Origin: an uncultured delta proteobacterium
GTDB lineage: Bacteria; Myxococcota_A; Polyangia; Polyangiales; Polyangiaceae
DNA length: 64,000 nucleotides
Assembly: GCA_963782055.1 (NCBI GenBank)
Contig: CAWAIF010000003.1
Span: 5,888,001-5,952,000, forward strand
Direction of reading: 5' to 3'
Made by a program: the position numbers and the translations under genes. Below the pieces are notes generated by a model, which was given only the letters and a program-made list of their open reading frames with translations, was not told the DNA's origin and did no database searches. Shown here piece after piece: positions 54,209 to 62,309 of the stretch. Numbering within the stretch: the stretch's first letter is position 1; every line of letters begins with the position of its first letter.

Positions 54209-55468
54209 TCAGTGGCAGGCCGGGCGAGAACCGGGCTCACGAAGCCAGCAGGCGCCGTCGAACACCTCGCGCGGGCCTGTCCCGTCCTTGGCGAGCTTGC
54301 GCAGGATCTCGCCGTCCGCGTCGGGGTCGACCAGCCGCGCGGCGATGCGCGGGTGCGGGTTGCTCCTGTCGAGCACGTGCTCGTTGTCCGTCCACACCAG
54401 GTGATAGCCCCAGGCGAGGGCCGGCTTGCCTGCGTCGTCGAAGCTCCAGGAGAGGTCGGCGATCATTCCCAGCCGCGTCCAGCCATTGAGGTAGACGACG
54501 TGCCGGTCCTGCTGCCGCGCCGGGAAGCGCGGCGTCCAGGACTCGCCCTGGTTGGAGACGAGGTTGCCGACCGAGGCGAAGACCGGCACGCGCCGGCCGT
54601 CCTCCGTGGTCACCACCTGCAGCGGGCTGACCACGTGCGGGTGGTGAATGACGACCGCGCTCGCGCCCGCCTCGGCGACGGCGCGGGCGAGCCCGAGCAT
54701 GGCGGCGGTCTGGGGAAGGTACTCCTCGCCACCGTGGAAGATGGCGATCGTGGCGTCGCACCCGGCGTGGAAGGCGCGTGCGATGCCCAGCGCCGCCTTC
54801 AGCTGGCCTCGCCGGTCGGGTGTGGCGACCGCCAGCTCGGCGGAGCTCGCGCAGGCGGAGCGGCGCTCGTTGGAGAAGGTGGTCCACGCCACCGCGCACA
54901 CGCGGAAGCCGGGCGTGTCGACCAGCACGCGCGCCTTCCACGGGTCGTCCGCGGCGGCGCCGAGCGCGGTGGTCCCCGTGGCGTCGGCGGCGGCGAGCGT
55001 CGCGCGCAGACCGCGCCCGCCCAGGTCGCAGGTGTGGTTGTTCGCCACCGTCAGCGCGTGAAGACCCGCGTCGTGCAGGGCGCGCATCCACTCCGGCGTC
55101 GCCGCCAGCGTGAAGGTGTGGGGGACCATCCCGCTCGGATCGCCCGTCGCCGTCTCGTAGTTCGCCACCGCGACGTCGGCCGATGCGAACAGCGGCGAGA
55201 GCGGCCAGAGCGCCTCCGCCACGCGCGGCGGGTCCACCAGCTGAGGCCGGTGAGGCAGCACGTCGCCCGCGACCAGCACGCGCACCGGCCGCCGGGCGAC
55301 CTTCGCGACCGCGGCATGGGCCGGCGCCCCCCCCCGACGCGGAACCTTCGGCGGCTCCGCGGCGACCGCGAGCTGCGCGTGGTTCGCCGGGACCTGCGCC
55401 GCCGGGTCGGGCGCCCCGCACGCCGCCGCGAGGCCCACGAGCGCCAGGATCACGCGGCCGAGCGTCAT
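54209..55468 (-). CDS. CapA-family (PGA_cap, metallophosphatase-fold) lipoprotein
   Basis: AGD, N.ET, ANNH..D.G, FHGG.EY, HHPHV, S.GN. Confidence 0.85.
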   Translation of the reverse strand: MTLGRVILALVGLAAACGAPDPAAQVPANHAQLAVAAEPPKVPRRGGAPAHAAVAKVARRPVRVLVAGDVLPHRPQLVDPPRVAEALWPLSPLFASADVAVANYETATGDPSGMVPHTFTLAATPEWMRALHDAGLHALTVANNHTCDLGGRGLRATLAAADATGTTALGAAADDPWKARVLVDTPGFRVCAVAWTTFSNERRSACASSAELAVATPDRRGQLKAALGIARAFHAGCDATIAIFHGGEEYLPQTAAMLGLARAVAEAGASAVVIHHPHVVSPLQVVTTEDGRRVPVFASVGNLVSNQGESWTPRFPARQQDRHVVYLNGWTRLGMIADLSWSFDDAGKPALAWGYHLVWTDNEHVLDRSNPHPRIAARLVDPDADGEILRKLAKDGTGPREVFDGACWLREPGSRPACH

Positions 55469-55572
55469 GAGCGGAATTGTCACGTGGCGCTCTCGCGATG
55501 GCCAAGAAGCCGGTGGCGACCAGCCCGCGCGTCCGCTCACCCGCGCCGAAGCGTGACCGCTCGGCGCGCCGG

Positions 55573-56805
55573 TCACTTCAGCGTGATGCGTGCCAGGCGG
55601 CACGCGCCGCCGAAGTTGGGCAGCGGGTGCGCGTAGCCCACCACGATCTGCTTCCCGTCGACGGAGCGCAGCGCCCCGTGCTCCTTGGCGAGATAGTTGG
55701 TGCCCGCGTCGCCCGTCACGAAGGCGCTGCCTGAGACCACCACCTCCGGGTCGGTCCACGGACCCGTGATGGCGTCGGCGGTGCGCAACGCGACGTCGTC
55801 GGAGAGCGGCTTGCTGTAGACGGCCAGCCACTTGCCGAGCCACGGGTTGCGCTGGATGGAGATCCCGTAGCTCGCGCGGTCGATGAACCACGCGGCCTGC
55901 GTCACGTCGGCCACCCACCCCGCGCCACTCCAGAAGGTGTACGCAGCCCTCGTCGTGGCGCCGGCGACCGGCGCCTTGGCGATCTTGCAGTGGTAGTCGA
56001 ACCCCAGCGCCTGCTCGCAGTCGAAGAGGTAGACGGTGTCGCCGTCGACCGTGGCGCCGCCGACCCCGAAGAGCGGGTCGGGCGGCTGGAAGAGGAAGCT
56101 GGGATCGCGCGTGGCCTGCGTCGAGTCCTTCGTGACGTGCGCGGTGCCGACGGCGTCCACGGCGAAGCCGCTCCCGCCGCTGCGCACGACGTGGTTGAAG
56201 AGCACCACGCCCTCCGTCGCGCTGGTCGGGATCACCGAGCCGGGCCAGAGGGCGAAGCCGTTGCCCGCGTCCGCCTGGTTCTGCGCCACCTCGGCCGGCG
56301 TGTAGGGGATGAACTCCATCGGCAGCCCGGCGTCGTCCAGCGGCTCGGTGAGGGCCAGCGGGCTCGCGGGCGTGCTCCACCCCGCGGTGCTGGAGCGCAC
56401 CGAGGTGCCGTCCTGCGCGTTCGGCTTGGTCAGGAAGGTGTCGCCGAACGTCCAGACCAGCTCGCCCCCGATCAGCCCCGACGTCGTCCCGTCGCGCCCG
56501 ACCACCGTCCCCGGCGCGCTGAAGGCGCCCAGGTCGTCGACGTGGTCGACGGCGAGCACGTGCCCCCCAGCGTCCGCTGCGGCGTCGACTCCGGCGTCGC
56601 CCGGCGCATCCGGGTTGCTGCACGCAACAACGAGCGGCAGCGCGACCGCCAGCGCGAGGACCGGCGCGCGTTCCCGGGACGTGCGCCGCGGCGCACCACC
56701 CTCCCCGTGTGGCGCGCGAAGCGCGACACCGTGGGGAGGGCGCCCACGCGCAGGGCCCGCGCGCAAGCTCTCGTGCGCGGCGACGTCCGTGTACTCTGCA
56801 CCCAT
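55573..56805 (-). CDS. DUF4185-like beta-propeller lipoprotein (start uncertain)
   Basis: Lipobox VVAC; W.FGDTF, WPG, Y.FW.G..W, LRTA..ITGPW. Confidence 0.7.
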   Translation of the reverse strand: MGAEYTDVAAHESLRAGPARGRPPHGVALRAPHGEGGAPRRTSRERAPVLALAVALPLVVACSNPDAPGDAGVDAAADAGGHVLAVDHVDDLGAFSAPGTVVGRDGTTSGLIGGELVWTFGDTFLTKPNAQDGTSVRSSTAGWSTPASPLALTEPLDDAGLPMEFIPYTPAEVAQNQADAGNGFALWPGSVIPTSATEGVVLFNHVVRSGGSGFAVDAVGTAHVTKDSTQATRDPSFLFQPPDPLFGVGGATVDGDTVYLFDCEQALGFDYHCKIAKAPVAGATTRAAYTFWSGAGWVADVTQAAWFIDRASYGISIQRNPWLGKWLAVYSKPLSDDVALRTADAITGPWTDPEVVVSGSAFVTGDAGTNYLAKEHGALRSVDGKQIVVGYAHPLPNFGGACRLARITLK

Positions 56806-56870
56806 CGACCGGCGCGCGCGAGAGCGAGCACGGGCCCGAGCATGGGCGGGGAGGGGCATCCCTCCTCCTC

Positions 56871-58154
56871 TCATCCCTCGGTCTCCCCGAACGCCTGGTA
56901 CCGCGCGCGCTCCTCCTCGCTCGGCCATGCCTCCTTCACGATCGCGAACTTTCCATGATCGAAGGGCAGCCCCGGCGCCTCCGCCACCTTCACGATCCGC
57001 TCCCGCTCCCCGCTCGCGAGCAGCTCCAGCGCGCGGTGATGGCAGTACGGGTTGTCCCCCGCCTTGCCGAAGAGCACGTGCGTCGTCCAGTTGCAGCCCG
57101 CCATGCACGCCTCCGCGTAGTAGCAGGTGCGGCAGAAGCCGCCGAGGTCCTCCACCGTGCGGTCGCGGGTGAAGCGCAGCTCCTTGCTCTGCTCCCAGAT
57201 GTCCAGGAGCGTGGCGTCGCGCACGTTGCCGCCGACGTACTCCTCCGTCGGGAGGGAGGGGCAGCCCTTGATGTCGCCGTTGGCCTCGATGCCCAGCACC
57301 AGGCGGCCCGCGCCGCACGGCCCGCGGTGCTTCTGCGCGTACATGCTGCGCAGGTGCGCCTCGAAGGGACCGAAGTACCCGATGTTGTTGCCCGCCCAGA
57401 AGCGGACGCCCGTCTCGTCGGCGCGCGACTTGAGGCGCGCGAGCATCGGGATCACCTCCAGCACCTGATACGGCTCCAGCAGCATCTCCGGCTCGTCGCC
57501 GGCGCGGCCCATGGCGGTGGTGAGCTGCATCTGCCAGCCGTGGATCTTCTTCTTCACGAAGATCTCGAAGACCTCGGGGATCTCGTGCAGGTTGACGCGG
57601 TTGATCTGCGTGTTGGCGGCGATGGCGATGCCGGCCGCCTTGGCGTTGTCCATCGCCGCCATGGCGGCGGCGAAGCTCCCCTCCACGCCGCGCAGCAGAT
57701 CGTGTGTACTCTGCAATCCATCCACCGACACGCTGATGCTCTGGATGCCCGCCGCCTTCGCCGCGCGCGCGCGCTCCGCCGTCAGCCCGCGGCCGCCGGT
57801 GGTCATCGTGCACTGCATGCCGAGGCGGCGGATCTCCCGGGCGATGTCCACCCAGTCCTCGCGCAGGTAGGCCTCGCCGCCGATGAGGGTCACCTCCAGC
57901 ACGCCGAGCTCGTGCATCTGCCGGACGAGATCGAGCGCCTGCGCGGTGTCCAGCTCGTCCGGGCGGCCGCGGCCGGCGCGCGAGCCGCAGTGGCGGCAGG
58001 CGAGATCGCAGGCGAGGGTGATCTCCCAGACGGCGTAGATGGGGCGGACCTTGTCCTTGTCGCGCACCTCCGCGGCGAGCGGCAGCCGCCGCTTCGACGG
58101 CTCCGCCATCGGGGCGATGGGGAGGCTGCGCGGGCGGGCGCCGAGGATGGTCAC
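56871..58154 (-). CDS. Radical SAM/SPASM peptide/protein maturase (PlpX/splicease-like group)
   Basis: AVWEITLACDLACRHCGSRAG (CxxxCxxC), IGGE; SPASM CGAG..GDIKGCPS..CRTCYYAEACMAGC..NPYC; GTG directly after upstream TGA (alternative ATG at 58109). Confidence 0.92.
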   Translation of the reverse strand: MTILGARPRSLPIAPMAEPSKRRLPLAAEVRDKDKVRPIYAVWEITLACDLACRHCGSRAGRGRPDELDTAQALDLVRQMHELGVLEVTLIGGEAYLREDWVDIAREIRRLGMQCTMTTGGRGLTAERARAAKAAGIQSISVSVDGLQSTHDLLRGVEGSFAAAMAAMDNAKAAGIAIAANTQINRVNLHEIPEVFEIFVKKKIHGWQMQLTTAMGRAGDEPEMLLEPYQVLEVIPMLARLKSRADETGVRFWAGNNIGYFGPFEAHLRSMYAQKHRGPCGAGRLVLGIEANGDIKGCPSLPTEEYVGGNVRDATLLDIWEQSKELRFTRDRTVEDLGGFCRTCYYAEACMAGCNWTTHVLFGKAGDNPYCHHRALELLASGERERIVKVAEAPGLPFDHGKFAIVKEAWPSEEERARYQAFGETEG

Positions 58155-58520
58155 TCAGTCGCCCCCGGAGTCGAGGGTTCCGGCGTCGGGCGGCGGGCCG
58201 CCGTAGGCGCCCTGGAGCGCGTCGGGGCCGGCGTCCTTCGCGGCGGCGTCGGCGTCGGGCCCGCCGTCCGCCAGCGCCGCGTCGTCTCCGTTGCCGCCGT
58301 CGTACGGAGGGGCGGGCGCCCCGTACACGGGCGTCAGTACCACGCCGCTGCCGCAGGCCGTCGCCACCATCGTAGCGCCGGCGACGAGCACGGCGCGGCT
58401 CACGCGCCCCGGAGCCACGCGCGCAGGAATGGAGTCGACGCGCGCCTCGCCGCAGAAGGGACAGCGGGCGTCCTCCGCGCGCACGTGGCGGCGGCAGTGC
58501 TCGCAAAGGTGAAAGCTCAT
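58155..58520 (-). CDS. Zn-ribbon/lipobox/YG-P precursor lipoprotein 1 (putative rSAM substrate)
   Basis: CEHC-x10-CPFC; VATAC lipobox; VYGAP and AYGGP. Confidence 0.85.
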   Translation of the reverse strand: MSFHLCEHCRRHVRAEDARCPFCGEARVDSIPARVAPGRVSRAVLVAGATMVATACGSGVVLTPVYGAPAPPYDGGNGDDAALADGGPDADAAAKDAGPDALQGAYGGPPPDAGTLDSGGD

Positions 58521-58532
58521 GACGTGAGCGTA

Positions 58533-58607
58533 TCAACCGCCGCAGAAGGGGCAAGCAGCGTCCGCGCGCGCGCGCGGCGGCTGGCAGCCGTCGCGGGTGA
58601 AGCTCAC
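58533..58607 (-). pseudogene. Degenerate remnant of the precursor Zn-ribbon leader
   Basis: Translates VSFTRDGCQPPRARADAACPFCGG*, compared with MSFHLCEHCRRHVRAEDARCPFCG. Confidence 0.6.
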
Positions 58608-58619
58608 GGCCTCAGGCCA

Positions 58620-59081
58620 TCAAAGGTCCGGTGGGTGGTCCTTCGGCGGCTTGTGGTGACGCGGGGGCGGCGGGCCTCCGTAGACGGTGACGTGCCTGCG
58701 ACGCCCGGCGTCGGCGGCGTCCGGCGAAGCGGTGTGATCGCTCACGCCGGCGTCCGGTCCGGCCGTGTCCTCGCTCGCGCCGGCATCGGGGGGCGCGACG
58801 GTGGGGATGGGCGGGGGAGGCGCCCCGTAGGCGGGCACCGCGACCACCGTCGGCATCGGCGCGGGCGGAGACGCGGACTTGTCGGTGAACCACCCGCGCG
58901 GATCGGCGGTCGTGTTGCAGCCGACGGCGACGGCCGCGACGCCGACGAGGGCCGCGCGGGTGAGGCGAGCCGGCGCCGTCCGTGAGGGCGCGGAGGCGGC
59001 CCCGGCGGATGCACCACAGAAGGGGCACGCGGCGTCGGCGGATCGCACGTGCCGGCGGCACGCCGCGCAGACGACGAGCAT
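58620..59081 (-). CDS. Zn-ribbon/lipobox/YG-P precursor lipoprotein 2
   Basis: CAAC-x10-CPFC; VAVGC lipobox; AYGAP and VYGGP. Confidence 0.85.
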   Translation of the reverse strand: MLVVCAACRRHVRSADAACPFCGASAGAASAPSRTAPARLTRAALVGVAAVAVGCNTTADPRGWFTDKSASPPAPMPTVVAVPAYGAPPPPIPTVAPPDAGASEDTAGPDAGVSDHTASPDAADAGRRRHVTVYGGPPPPRHHKPPKDHPPDL

Positions 59082-59443
59082 CAGTCGGTTCCGGCGTCGG
59101 TGGGCGGGCCCCCGTACGCCGCGATCGGTCCCTCGTCGGCCGCGTCCTGCGGCGGCGCGGCGTCGAGGGGCGGGCCGCCGTAAAAGACGAGCGGCCCGTC
59201 GATCGACGAGTCCTTGGCGGCGTCCAGGCCGGCGGCGTCGGCGCCGCCGTCGGTGGGCTCGGTCGTGCTGCCGCCACACGCCACCGCCACCGCCGCCACG
59301 CCGATGAGCGCCGCCGCACGGCTCTTGCGCCAGGGCGAGCCCGGCGATCGCCCGGCGCCGACGATGGTGGCGCCGCAGAAGGGACACGCGGCGTCCTCCT
59401 GCTTCACGTGACGCGCGCACCCGGAGCAAATGCAGAGCGGCAT
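59081..59443 (-). CDS. Zn-ribbon/lipobox/YG-P precursor lipoprotein 3
   Basis: CSGC-x10-CPFC; AVAC lipobox; FYGGP and AYGGP; GGGAGG RBS; TGATG overlap with next gene. Confidence 0.85.
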   Translation of the reverse strand: MPLCICSGCARHVKQEDAACPFCGATIVGAGRSPGSPWRKSRAAALIGVAAVAVACGGSTTEPTDGGADAAGLDAAKDSSIDGPLVFYGGPPLDAAPPQDAADEGPIAAYGGPPTDAGTD

Positions 59444-59562: not shown

Positions 59563-59628
59563 ATGGCGCTGGTCCCCTGTCCATCGTGCCGACGCCACGT
59601 GCGCGAGGAGGAGTCGTGCCCCTCGTGA
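59563..59628 (+). pseudogene. Truncated divergent fourth precursor paralog
   Basis: MALVPCPSCRRHVREEESCPS*. Confidence 0.6.
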
Positions 59629-59632
59629 CTGA

Positions 59633-60028
59633 CTACACCATCAGTCCCGGCAGCGGCCCCTGACCGGCCTGCCCGAAGGTGGGCGTCGGGTCCCCCATCG
59701 CCCGGGCGATGCTCACCAGCAGATCGGCGTGCCGGTGGTAGCCCACGTCGTGGAGCTGGCCGGTGTGGACCGCGCCGCCCCCGCCGCCCCCCAGGATGAA
59801 CGCCCTGACCATGTGCTTCGACACCGCCGACGCGCAGTCGCCGGTGCACTTCTTCGGGTCGTCGAAGGGCATCTTGGCGTCGACGAAGCTGGTGAGCGAG
59901 GCGAGGTCATAGCGCGGCCCGCGATCGCGCAGGGAGGGGCCGCTGCCGCCCTCGCCCTGCGCGCCGTGGCAGCTCGCGCATTGCGACGCGTAGATCGGCT
60001 TGCCGTCCTGCGCAAAATTCCGCCACAT
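59633..60028 (-). pseudogene. Cytochrome c fragment fused to a DUF1552-like C-terminal fragment
   Basis: YASQCASCHG..GPSL..MP, then GGGGGAVHTG..HADLLVSIARAMG..FG..GPLPGL; no signal peptide or clear start. Confidence 0.5.
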
Positions 60029-60203: not shown

Positions 60204-60974
60204 ATGAAGTTCCGCAAGCTCACCGGCCTCGCGCTCGCGGTCATCGTCGCGGCGATGCCCATCGCAGCATGCGAGAACACCTACACCTACGTCCCGACCA
60301 CCAGCGCCACGGTGGCCACCGGCGGCGACCTCGCAGCCGAGTATCCCATCCCGGCCGACGCGCCGCGAGGCACGTTGCAGGTGGAGTCCTTCGGCTTCGC
60401 CGACGTGAGCTCGCCCTCGGCGCCCGATCAGCAGCTCTCCGCGCTGCACCTGCGGCTGACACTCGTGAACCACGGCACCAAGGCCTGGACGCTCGACACG
60501 CGGGCGCAGCGGCTGGACCTCGACCACCGCGGCGCGGGCGCGCCGGCGTTCGCGTCGGCGGACAAGGGGACGCCGCCGGTCGTGATCGTCCCCCCGTCGG
60601 GCAAGCGCGTCGTGGACCTCTTCTTCATGCTCCCCGCCGACATGCAGAGCGCCGGGCGCCTCCCCGCGTTCGACGCGATGTGGCAGGTGAACGACGGCGA
60701 TCAGCTCGTCCAGGGGCGCACGCCCTTCGAGCGGCTCGTCGTCGAGCCCACGCCGGCGTACACGTACGACTACGGGTCGTACGACTACTGGGGACCGCCA
60801 TACTGGTACAACCCGCACTACGCGTCGTACGGCTTCCGGGGCGAGCTCGTCGTCCCGCGCGCGTACCACCGCCACCCGGTCATCATCCACCGCGGCATCC
60901 ACAACGGTGAGCACCGCGGTGCCTTCCACGATCCGCTGCGCGCGACGCCGCACGGCGGCGGCCACCACCGCTAG
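60204..60974 (+). CDS. Hypothetical lipoprotein with Tyr/Trp/His-rich tail
   Basis: Lipobox IAAC; GC3 bias. Confidence 0.75.
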   Translation: MKFRKLTGLALAVIVAAMPIAACENTYTYVPTTSATVATGGDLAAEYPIPADAPRGTLQVESFGFADVSSPSAPDQQLSALHLRLTLVNHGTKAWTLDTRAQRLDLDHRGAGAPAFASADKGTPPVVIVPPSGKRVVDLFFMLPADMQSAGRLPAFDAMWQVNDGDQLVQGRTPFERLVVEPTPAYTYDYGSYDYWGPPYWYNPHYASYGFRGELVVPRAYHRHPVIIHRGIHNGEHRGAFHDPLRATPHGGGHHR

Positions 60975-61064: not shown

Positions 61065-61427
61065 ATGTCGGACTACTTCGTCGCGGGCGGTTGGGGAATG
61101 TATCCGGTGACGCTCTTCGGGTTCTTACTGGTGGCGGTGACGGCGCTGCACGCGCTGCGGCCCCGGCCCGTCTACGCGCGGCTGGCGCTCGTCCTGGGGA
61201 TCGCCACCTTCATGGCCGGGCTGCTCGGCACCGCGACGGGCATCAGCGCGACGGCACACTACATCCAGCACGTCGCGCAGCCGAAGCAGGTGGAGATCTT
61301 CGCCCTCGGCCTGGACGAGTCGCTGCACGACCTGGTGCTCTCGATGATCCTCGTGGTCGTCGCGTGCCTCATCGCCACCGTCGGCGTCCTCCGCAACGGG
61401 AGGACCTCGGCCCCGGCCGCGGCGTGA
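61065..61427 (+). CDS. Small three-TM membrane protein (MotA/TolQ-like segments)
   Basis: F..GGWGMYP, GLLGT..G, GLDES. Confidence 0.7.
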   Translation: MSDYFVAGGWGMYPVTLFGFLLVAVTALHALRPRPVYARLALVLGIATFMAGLLGTATGISATAHYIQHVAQPKQVEIFALGLDESLHDLVLSMILVVVACLIATVGVLRNGRTSAPAAA

Positions 61428-61431
61428 GGGG

Positions 61432-61953
61432 ATGGACTCCGACGAGGCCCTCTTCCGGCGGTGGGTCGGAGGCGACATGCGCGCCTTCGACCTCCTCCAT
61501 GACCGCTTCGAGCGCCCGCTCTTCGGCTTCATACGCGCGCAGGTGGGCGACGCCGGCGAGGCGGAGGACGTGCTGCACGAGACCTTCATGGCGCTGCTGC
61601 GCGAGCGCCCGGACGAGCTGCGGAGCTTCCGCGCGTGGGTCTACACCGTCGCGCGTCACCTCTGCCAGAACCGCGTGCGGTCGCGCAAGCGCGCCGGCCG
61701 CGCGCACGAGGCGGCGGCGGTGACGGCCACCGTCCCCGCGGGAGCGCACGAGCAGCTGGAGGCGCACGAGCGCGGCGTGCTGCTGGAGCGCGCGGTCGCC
61801 CGCCTCCCCTCCTCCCTCGCGGAGGTCTACCGGCTGCGGGGCGCCGGGATGTCCTACGACGAGGTCGCCGAGATCCTCGAGGTCCCGGTGACGACGGTGA
61901 GGTCGCGCGTGCACGAGATGGTCAAGCGGTTGCGAGAAGAGGTGGCGTCATGA
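61432..61953 (+). CDS. ECF sigma factor
   Basis: AEDVLHETF, FRAWVYTVAR..C.N, MSYDEVA..L..PV.TVRSR. Confidence 0.9.
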   Translation: MDSDEALFRRWVGGDMRAFDLLHDRFERPLFGFIRAQVGDAGEAEDVLHETFMALLRERPDELRSFRAWVYTVARHLCQNRVRSRKRAGRAHEAAAVTATVPAGAHEQLEAHERGVLLERAVARLPSSLAEVYRLRGAGMSYDEVAEILEVPVTTVRSRVHEMVKRLREEVAS

Positions 61954-62309
61954 GCTGCGCGGAGATCGAGCAGGAGCTCGTCGGGTATCACTTCAACACC
62001 CTGCCCCAGGACGTACGGCGGCGGGTGGAGGCGCACCTGCCGGAGTGCGACGCGTGCGTCCGCGCCTTCGTCGAGCTCAAGCGCGACATCGAGACGGGCG
62101 AGGAGGCCCCGCGGCCCTCGGAGGCGGCGCGCCTCCGACTGCGCCGCGCGGTGGCCCGGGAGCTGGGCGTGGAGGCGCCGCGGTGGCGCTGGTGGGAGCG
62201 GCCGGCGGCGATCGCCTTCGCCGCCTCGGTGGTGCTCGCCGCCGGGATGACGACGCGCCTGCTCACCTCGCGGCCGGGCGCGCCGCCGCACGCCATCACC
62301 GATCGCTGA
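61950..62309 (+). CDS. Zinc-binding anti-sigma factor (zf-HC2/ZAS)
   Basis: HLPECDAC (HxxxCxxC), TM helix; ATGA overlap with the sigma gene. Confidence 0.85.
   Translation: MSCAEIEQELVGYHFNTLPQDVRRRVEAHLPECDACVRAFVELKRDIETGEEAPRPSEAARLRLRRAVARELGVEAPRWRWWERPAAIAFAASVVLAAGMTTRLLTSRPGAPPHAITDR

Follow-up and report, generated by a model that had tools for sequence, protein, structure and literature searches.

A candidate tyramine-splicing system for zinc-finger-tagged lipoprotein precursors in Polyangiales myxobacteria

What does an enzyme related to the peptide spliceases do beside a row of genes that appear to encode lipoproteins? The question is raised by a 64,000-nucleotide stretch of DNA, the window, from an uncultured delta proteobacterium of the Polyangiaceae (GenBank assembly GCA_963782055.1, contig CAWAIF010000003.1, positions 5,888,001 to 5,952,000, forward strand). 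Here, three small open reading frames (ORFs) with paired Tyr-Gly (YG) motifs, called substrates A, B, and C, accompany a gene for a radical S-adenosylmethionine (rSAM) enzyme with a SPASM domain. An earlier note, made from the letters alone, had proposed that the enzyme splices the backbone of membrane-anchored lipoproteins. The analysis gives good support to the locus as a real, widespread, candidate two-component tyramine-splicing system that acts on lipoprotein precursors; its gene anatomy, the clade of its enzyme, the conservation of its motifs, and the co-occurrence of its two partners are matters of observation.

The gene array and its enzyme

The three substrate genes and the rSAM gene are co-oriented on the minus strand. 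As the earlier note described them, the substrates run from 120 to 153 amino acids, A and B overlap by 1 base (TGATG), and the stop codon of C abuts the GTG start of the enzyme (TGA-GTG); a 99-bp gap separates B from C. Two broken copies, missed in the note's count, complete the array:

56871..58154, minus strand: rSAM/SPASM enzyme, 427 amino acids, in the splicease (PlpX-like) clade by Pfam, NCBIfam, alignment, and trees
58155..58520, minus strand: putative substrate C, 121 amino acids; zinc finger at residues 6-23, hydrophobic (h-) region, lipobox Cys56; VYGAP at residues 65-69 and AYGGP at 105-109
58533..58607, minus strand: degenerate zinc-finger fragment, by sequence and translation; first CxxC gone, CPFC retained, then a stop
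58620..59081, minus strand: putative substrate B, 153 amino acids; zinc finger, lipobox Cys55, Pro-rich tail; AYGAP at residues 84-88 and VYGGP at 133-137
59081..59443, minus strand: putative substrate A, 120 amino acids; zinc finger, lipobox Cys56; FYGGP at residues 87-91 and AYGGP at 109-113
59563..59628, plus strand: divergent, truncated fourth copy; 21 zinc-finger codons, stop within CPFC; leader hidden Markov model E 7e-05

The fragment at 58533-58607 appears to be the remnant of a duplicated substrate start, and the presence of broken copies on both strands points to ongoing duplication of the array. From N to C terminus, A, B, and C share the motif CxxC-RHV-x6-7-CPFC, a linker, R-x-x-R-A, a hydrophobic stretch, a lipobox Cys at 55-56, and a tail rich in Asp, Ala, Gly, and Pro. 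In each, the X-Y-G-[AG]-P motif occurs exactly twice, in agreement with the note. YG[AG]P holds six of their seven Tyr residues, the seventh being a third Tyr of substrate C in PYDGG, which is not a YG site; across 4355 coding-like ORFs of the genome, the corresponding figure is 47/37,555 (0.13%).

The enzyme exceeds the Pfam cut-offs for Radical_SAM (81 bits) and SPASM (31.5 bits), and its leading NCBIfam matches are to TIGR04103 (481 bits) and TIGR03913 (444 bits, with a match that stops at model position 391 of 477). The remaining NCBIfam families reach at most 156 bits (TIGR04133, 156 with a cut-off of 425; NirJ, 121; AhbC, 117; PqqE, 113), scores low enough to rule out kinship with TIGR04133, PqqE, NirJ, Ahb, and mycofactocin enzymes. 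The PlpX-type affinity proposed in the note is therefore borne out, and no clustering with cofactor enzymes was found; the rSAM/lipoprotein pairs of Bacteroidetes, which the note had also invoked, fail as homologs.

PlpX is placed in TIGR04103 (PMC11002830). Seven TIGR04103 proteins, which carry either the name "nif11-class peptide radical SAM maturase 3" or a cyanobacterial label, are 52-55% identical to the enzyme over ~365 residues; the comparison runs through such TIGR04103-named proteins, the PlpX sequence itself lying outside the compared set. In a 71-row alignment that takes in six named TIGR04103 proteins, C49, C53, and C56, together with the SPASM cysteines C280, C298, C341, C344, C350, C354, and C371, are invariant or nearly so, and 50 invariant columns are common to the window enzyme's family and the TIGR04103 proteins. 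In a careful tree, built from 42 chosen rows, the enzyme falls in a myxobacterial group (support 96/98), which forms a core clade (100/100) with the TIGR04103 proteins and with TIGR03913-like proteins, a family whose members we take to be spliceases. A quick tree of 103 rows with a doubtful long-branch root had suggested a sister relation to the TIGR04103 group (support 91), which the careful tree did not uphold. The enzyme is a member of the core splicease clade and, by family cut-offs, belongs to none of TIGR04103, TIGR03913, and TIGR04133. It has no C-terminal zinc finger and no RiPP recognition element (RiPP, ribosomally synthesized and posttranslationally modified peptide).

The substrates, their tag, and related designs

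Linkage between enzyme and substrates was followed through homologous loci, taken as the best 80 of 259 and coming nearly all from Polyangiales/Myxococcota metagenome-assembled genomes. The neighborhood that the note expected recurs: a zinc-finger ORF adjoins the enzyme gene in 70 of the 80 loci, the other 10 being mostly short contigs, and an enzyme-substrate pair is present in the cultured group as well (Polyangium fumosum DSM 14668). All 136 zinc-finger ORFs at these loci lie on the enzyme's strand, and 129 contain YG. Gly follows Tyr in 343 of their 373 Tyr residues, versus a Gly background of 14%; X is L, A, M, R, F, E, P, V, or D, the -2 position is A/P, and Pro stands at +3 in 282/343 YG sites. 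PLYGLP, a splice-tag hexamer (Table 1 of PMC10533398), occurs in 10/136 substrates, and AMYG, a PcpA site, in 20/136, while the full PcpA hexamer AMYGAV (PMC11414181 supplement) occurs in none. Among proteins retrieved by leader only, which form an independent set, 116/119 contain YG; in the leader-bearing proteins P0369, P0370, and P0375, the sole Tyr lies within a conserved Tyr-Arg-Ala. The substrates match no Pfam or NCBIfam family, and a protein atlas search matched only unnamed clusters from Myxococcota.

The two partners also occur together at the genome level. Across 151 genomes of the order, leader and enzyme are both present in 93 (92/150 without genome G110, which is marked unpublished), the leader only in 4, the enzyme only in 3, and neither in 51; all four leader-only genomes rest on weak matches (E > 1e-5). 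In a sample of the phylum, the leader was found at E 1e-6 in 28/201 genomes.

The export signal of the substrates is of the lipoprotein type, as the note had claimed. A lipobox stands behind the finger in 188/212 distinct substrates, compared with a mean of 12 and a maximum of 22 over 200 rounds of shuffling and with 141/4355 generic ORFs (3.2%); these 188 combine a basic n-region, an uncharged h-region, and a [LVIA]-[AST]-[AG]-C lipobox. Residue frequencies from -3 to +2, and over the next 30 residues, closely resemble those of 505 lipoprotein-like ORFs picked from the source genome by a simple rule. The note's lipobox Cys is thus real, and its position is late (56, 55, and 56 in the window), behind the zinc finger. 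Twin-arginine export was rejected (motif in 3/188), and the double-glycine leader motif is absent from all 212 sequences. The recurrent neighbor clusters inspected at the 80 loci contained no protease and no exporter or transporter, in line with the note's remark on the window; the three largest clusters are opposite-strand shadows of enzyme and substrate genes, and the largest real one is a D-Ala-D-Ala ligase (11 loci).

Some substrates extend into OmpA or AgmX/PglI, which are envelope domains. A Pfam scan of 11 long or atypical substrates placed the OmpA peptidoglycan-binding domain above cut-off in L021 and L206, and an NCBIfam scan of 10 of those 11 placed AgmX/PglI above cut-off in L186 and below threshold in four; matches to the NCBIfam "lipo-invert" domain were weak (15-20 bits, cut-off 37), and it was set aside. 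In 3/188 substrates (L029:2218, L175, and L179) and in C3:1478310 (+), the lipid Cys occupies the X position of XYG; with Cys directly before Tyr-Gly, splicing would turn the lipid-bearing Cys into a keto-beta residue. Zinc-finger YG proteins that lack a lipobox include L180:1468-2130, L187:1471-2103, P0381, and L212:1297-1599; by eye, a signal-peptidase-I-like site is seen in L180 and L187 and a C-terminal membrane helix in L212.

The CxxC/CPFC motif appeared in a check proposed by the note, which assigned it no role. A structural model of residues 1-62 of substrate C gives a beta-hairpin Cys4 finger (predicted local distance difference test score, ~90 over residues 1-20). A fold search returned weak RanBP2/NZF zinc-finger matches (E 0.9-4) and none at E 0.001 or better. 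Profile comparison aligns the leader with a domain at the C terminus of 14 TIGR03913-like enzymes (HHalign 97.7%, E 1.6e-12), with single hits too; one of the 14, P0011, passes the TIGR03913 cut-off. Residues 2-39 of substrate B match TIGR03913 positions 428-465 weakly (E 0.11). We describe here, on the strength of these profile matches, what appears to be a zinc finger that acts as a mobile tag and has its homolog at the C terminus of TIGR03913 enzymes. In P0009, which clusters with an Arenibaculum protein, a zinc finger lies at the N terminus of the enzyme, and the enzyme P0007 ends in apparent tetratricopeptide repeats. When a single-sequence leader was used as the query, no longer fused forms scored, which is weak evidence; an alignment search did retrieve them.

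Genomes of the order hold up to 27 leader matches and 1-8 enzyme matches. Where substrates are mostly distant from the enzyme, they keep YG (26/28 in G073, 23/25 in G044, and 31/32 in G019, G137, and G105 together, counts that include a few partial duplicates or false hits). These figures point to a further new feature, up to 27 putatively tagged substrates per genome, some fused to OmpA or AgmX/PglI domains. The source genome itself has a second splicease gene (C3:2324320-2325519, minus strand), 60% identical to the window enzyme and followed by its own zinc-finger lipoprotein (region C3:2323866-2325519, minus strand) with a single PYGC near the C terminus. It also has two enzyme-distant substrates, at C3:119008 and C3:1478310. 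The first (C3:119002-119448, plus strand) carries VYGGP, MYGGP, and a degenerate lipobox, and its surroundings, judged by eye, include a toxin-antitoxin-like pair and nuclease/polymerase-like fragments.

In a distant clade, enzyme, lipobox, and YG repeats appear to be parts of a single polypeptide, an arrangement that is also new here. Among 150 representatives (50% clustering), 111 contain the SPASM domain through to its end; in 25 of these an h-region and lipobox follow directly, and 21 of the 25 have 1-10 YG. The same single open frame is seen in genomic DNA at 13/65 scored loci, with YG in 11 of the 13 (of the 80 fusion-scan loci, 14 were dropped when the search pattern missed the enzyme and 1 was too short). 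Close homologs of the window enzyme include no fusions (0/77). One-frame examples are P0061 (GenBank MBI5487372.1), P0069, P0090, P0100, P0114, P0128, and others, and L082:2887-4440, L102:2914-4509, and L142:2944-4737; fusion tails also contain Tyr-Ala, Tyr-Ser, and Tyr-Met variants. We regard the fusion proteins as candidate self-splicing lipoproteins. Because their clade lies outside the core clade, the chemistry of fusion-related enzymes is less sure, and the fusions back the architecture more than the chemistry.

Next to unfused relatives of the fusions lie 17 ORFs, in 13 loci, with a short helical N terminus, a lipobox, and YG; this count is no test, because the selection pattern demanded those features. 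They would form a second family of lipoprotein-type substrates. Such loci include L093:4710-5138, L098, L099, L105, L109, L111, L113, L116, L118, L120, and L149, and in some of their substrates the YG sites lie between acidic double-disulfide repeats (NF033662). The helical leader does not match PlpY (0.1%). Beside distant enzymes related to the fusion clade, L152:2671-2900 and L160:4181-4800 encode short nonlipoprotein peptides with dense YG repeats.

The window contains other genes around the array: DUF4185 and CapA-like genes (54212-56844, minus strand), a small cytochrome c whose end adjoins the truncated fourth copy (59633-60028, minus strand), and a trio of membrane protein, extracytoplasmic function (ECF) sigma factor, and zf-HC2 anti-sigma factor (61065-62309, plus strand). 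These neighbors were rejected as parts of the system, since none recurs consistently beside homologs (DUF4185 at 1 and ECF sigma at 2 of the 80 loci). At 60204-60974 (plus strand), a 256-amino-acid lipoprotein-like ORF with no Pfam family and no zinc finger has a Tyr-rich C-terminal stretch that holds two YG. A promoter and terminator scan gave no signal above shuffle level.

Proposed mechanism and alternatives

We propose a chain of finger recognition, tyramine excision, export, lipidation, signal peptidase II cleavage, and ketoamide display, to which we give a probability of roughly 0.62 as a whole; that the enzyme splices out tyramine, taken by itself, is very likely. First, the N-terminal Cys4 finger would fold in the cytoplasm and dock on or activate the enzyme, a role filled in other systems by PlpY or the RhaA leader. 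Both of the latter are activators, and they remain equally functional when fused to the enzyme C terminus (PMC11414181); a finger found on either enzyme or substrate would fit that logic. Second, homology suggests that the enzyme would cut out one tyramine unit (C8H9NO, ~135.07 Da) per X-Tyr-Gly, giving alpha-keto-beta-Phe/Ala in A, -Ala/Val in B, and -Val/Ala in C. Third, judging by the signal sequences, the disordered tail would be exported, Lgt would lipidate Cys55/56, and signal peptidase II would strip the entire zinc-finger leader, so that no dedicated protease or ABC exporter would be needed. Finally, and speculatively, acidic lipid-anchored tethers might expose the electrophilic ketoamides to Ser/Cys proteases and trap them, either within the periplasm or at the outer membrane. 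The protease trapping is an extrapolation from spliceotides made synthetically or recombinantly (PMC11626197). The cell would then probably display reactive ketoamides on lipid-anchored envelope proteins rather than secrete a free peptide. Tyramine chemistry, lipidation, and protease inhibition, all present in the earlier note, are what we infer along this chain. As a genome-wide address tag, the finger would, we propose, allow enzyme-distant substrates to be modified in trans.

Several findings weigh against this scheme. The enzyme falls below the cut-offs of both TIGR04103 (725 bits, passed in 0/151 genomes of the order) and TIGR03913 (592 bits, from 591.75), and the branching order of the three core groups was not recovered in the careful tree. 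Small zinc ribbons are alike generally: generic ones of the genome reach 13-15 bits in the leader search, in which TIGR03913-type tails score mostly 10-29 bits and at best 37. HHalign detects no resemblance between the leader and PlpY-type proteins (0.06%), and the leader was rejected as a PlpY homolog. A lipobox is missing from 24/212 substrates, and the lipid Cys, which in textbook lipoproteins lies about 15-35 residues from the start, comes later here (median 59.5, 5-95% range 50-63), behind an n-region that the zinc finger lengthens. Co-occurrence counts overstate independence, because the genomes are related; 3/119 leader-bearing proteins have Tyr-Arg instead of YG; and the fusion clade, at 31-42% identity, lies outside the core clade. 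Moreover, some YG sites of known substrates escape modification, such as the DYG of RcsA (PMC11626197).

The alternative that survives best accepts the splicing and has host proteases free the ketoamide peptides as a diffusible RiPP, with the signal serving export only; a variant leaves an uncleaved single-pass membrane protein. Like multicore RiPPs, the substrates have repeated cores, with the last YG within 12 residues of the C terminus in 130/180, and the late lipid Cys, the signal-peptidase-I-like sites of L180 and L187, and the membrane helix of L212 would suit it too. However, the lipobox and tether are like those of the genome's ordinary lipoproteins, YG sites adjoin folded envelope domains, and neither a double-glycine leader motif nor a recurrent protease or exporter was found in the sequences and neighbor clusters inspected, so we consider release, variant included, unlikely.

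Less probable still is a system with true substrates and some other Tyr-Gly chemistry, such as a C-C or C-N Tyr cross-link or cleavage of the side chain only. The enzyme's place under both splicease-family cut-offs, the unrecovered order within its clade, and a stricter +3 Pro than the known cores inspected show leave room for this, as does the lack of a solved splicease structure for comparing active sites. Set against it are the 52-55% identity to TIGR04103 proteins, the 50 shared invariant columns, and an XYG target identical to that of known spliceotides, with near-identical flanks. That the proteins are unmodified membrane sensors or structural lipoproteins, with YG[AG]P as a binding motif and a regulatory linkage to the enzyme, is highly improbable: in some genomes most copies lie far from any enzyme gene and the finger resembles protein-binding RanBP2/NZF fingers, but the enzyme is missing from just 4/97 leader-positive genomes (all weak leader matches), distant copies retain YG, and enzyme-lipobox-YG fusions occur.

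Beyond ketoamide display at this locus, we offer a broader proposal that is distinctly tentative and would be new to the literature. In Polyangiales-type myxobacteria, tyramine splicing might be a genome-wide envelope protein modification and not a peptide natural-product pathway. An extended-signal zinc-finger tag would steer up to ~27 lipoproteins per genome, including those with OmpA and AgmX/PglI domains, to between one and three enzymes ahead of their export. This design would return in systems whose tag is helical and in single-chain fusions that splice their own tail and are then lipidated and cut free, and beta-amino-acid backbones would be normal in native envelope proteins.

Comparison with known splicease systems

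Scott et al. (2022) listed 27 characterized and 939 predicted systems (PMC10533398), in a screen that counted YG motifs beside PlpX homologs across 189 genera (PMC10849128). Such a screen may well have caught this group, and we think it more likely than not that it did. Our literature search, which did not cover that type survey, found no zinc-finger or lipoprotein splicease substrates, and "PlpX" with "lipoprotein" returned nothing; the PMC11414181 supplement gives leader alignments for types II, III, and V, with type IV omitted. The present analysis contributes three elements: a mobile tag in the form of a zinc finger, numerous trans substrates bearing envelope domains, and fusions of enzyme, lipobox, and YG repeats into one polypeptide.

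These features would matter in several ways. If the products stay lipid-anchored, membrane fractions are where to look for them, and signal peptidase II is the leader protease. If the proposal is true, backbone splicing is not confined to small peptides and reaches many native envelope proteins. A mobile finger also offers new single-component tools for site-specific protein labeling.

The nearest known relatives share different parts of the design. Bacteroidetes TIGR04133 pairs have an rSAM/SPASM gene adjoining a lipoprotein-type gene, but the score of the window enzyme for that family is no better than for unrelated SPASM families, and the likeness is one of layout, not kinship. The TIGR03913 "GDL motif peptide-associated" maturases share the core clade and a homologous Cys4 domain; in contrast to the fingerless window enzyme, they carry the finger themselves, and their substrates, per the family name, are small GDL-motif peptides.

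The type I systems of Pleurocapsa (PlpA/PlpX/PlpY and PcpAXY; TIGR04103) belong to the same rSAM/SPASM clade and have several XYG sites with similar flanks in substrates encoded beside the enzyme. They differ in having a Nif11-type double-glycine leader and a Y protein, whereas the window system has a zinc finger and a lipoprotein signal, a contrast in leader type also seen against cyanobacterial type I loci.

The type II binary systems of Rheinheimera (RhaXA, RcsXA, and RasXA; PMC11414181 and PMC11626197) likewise have two components, and the substrate N terminus is the likely activator or docking element. Going by their descriptions, they are set apart by a PlpY-like alpha-helical leader in place of the Cys4 finger and membrane signal. 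In both, that element can work from the enzyme C terminus, where it was engineered in type II and appears to occur naturally here, so that the shift of the finger between the substrate N terminus and the enzyme terminus mirrors the activator fusions of PMC11414181.

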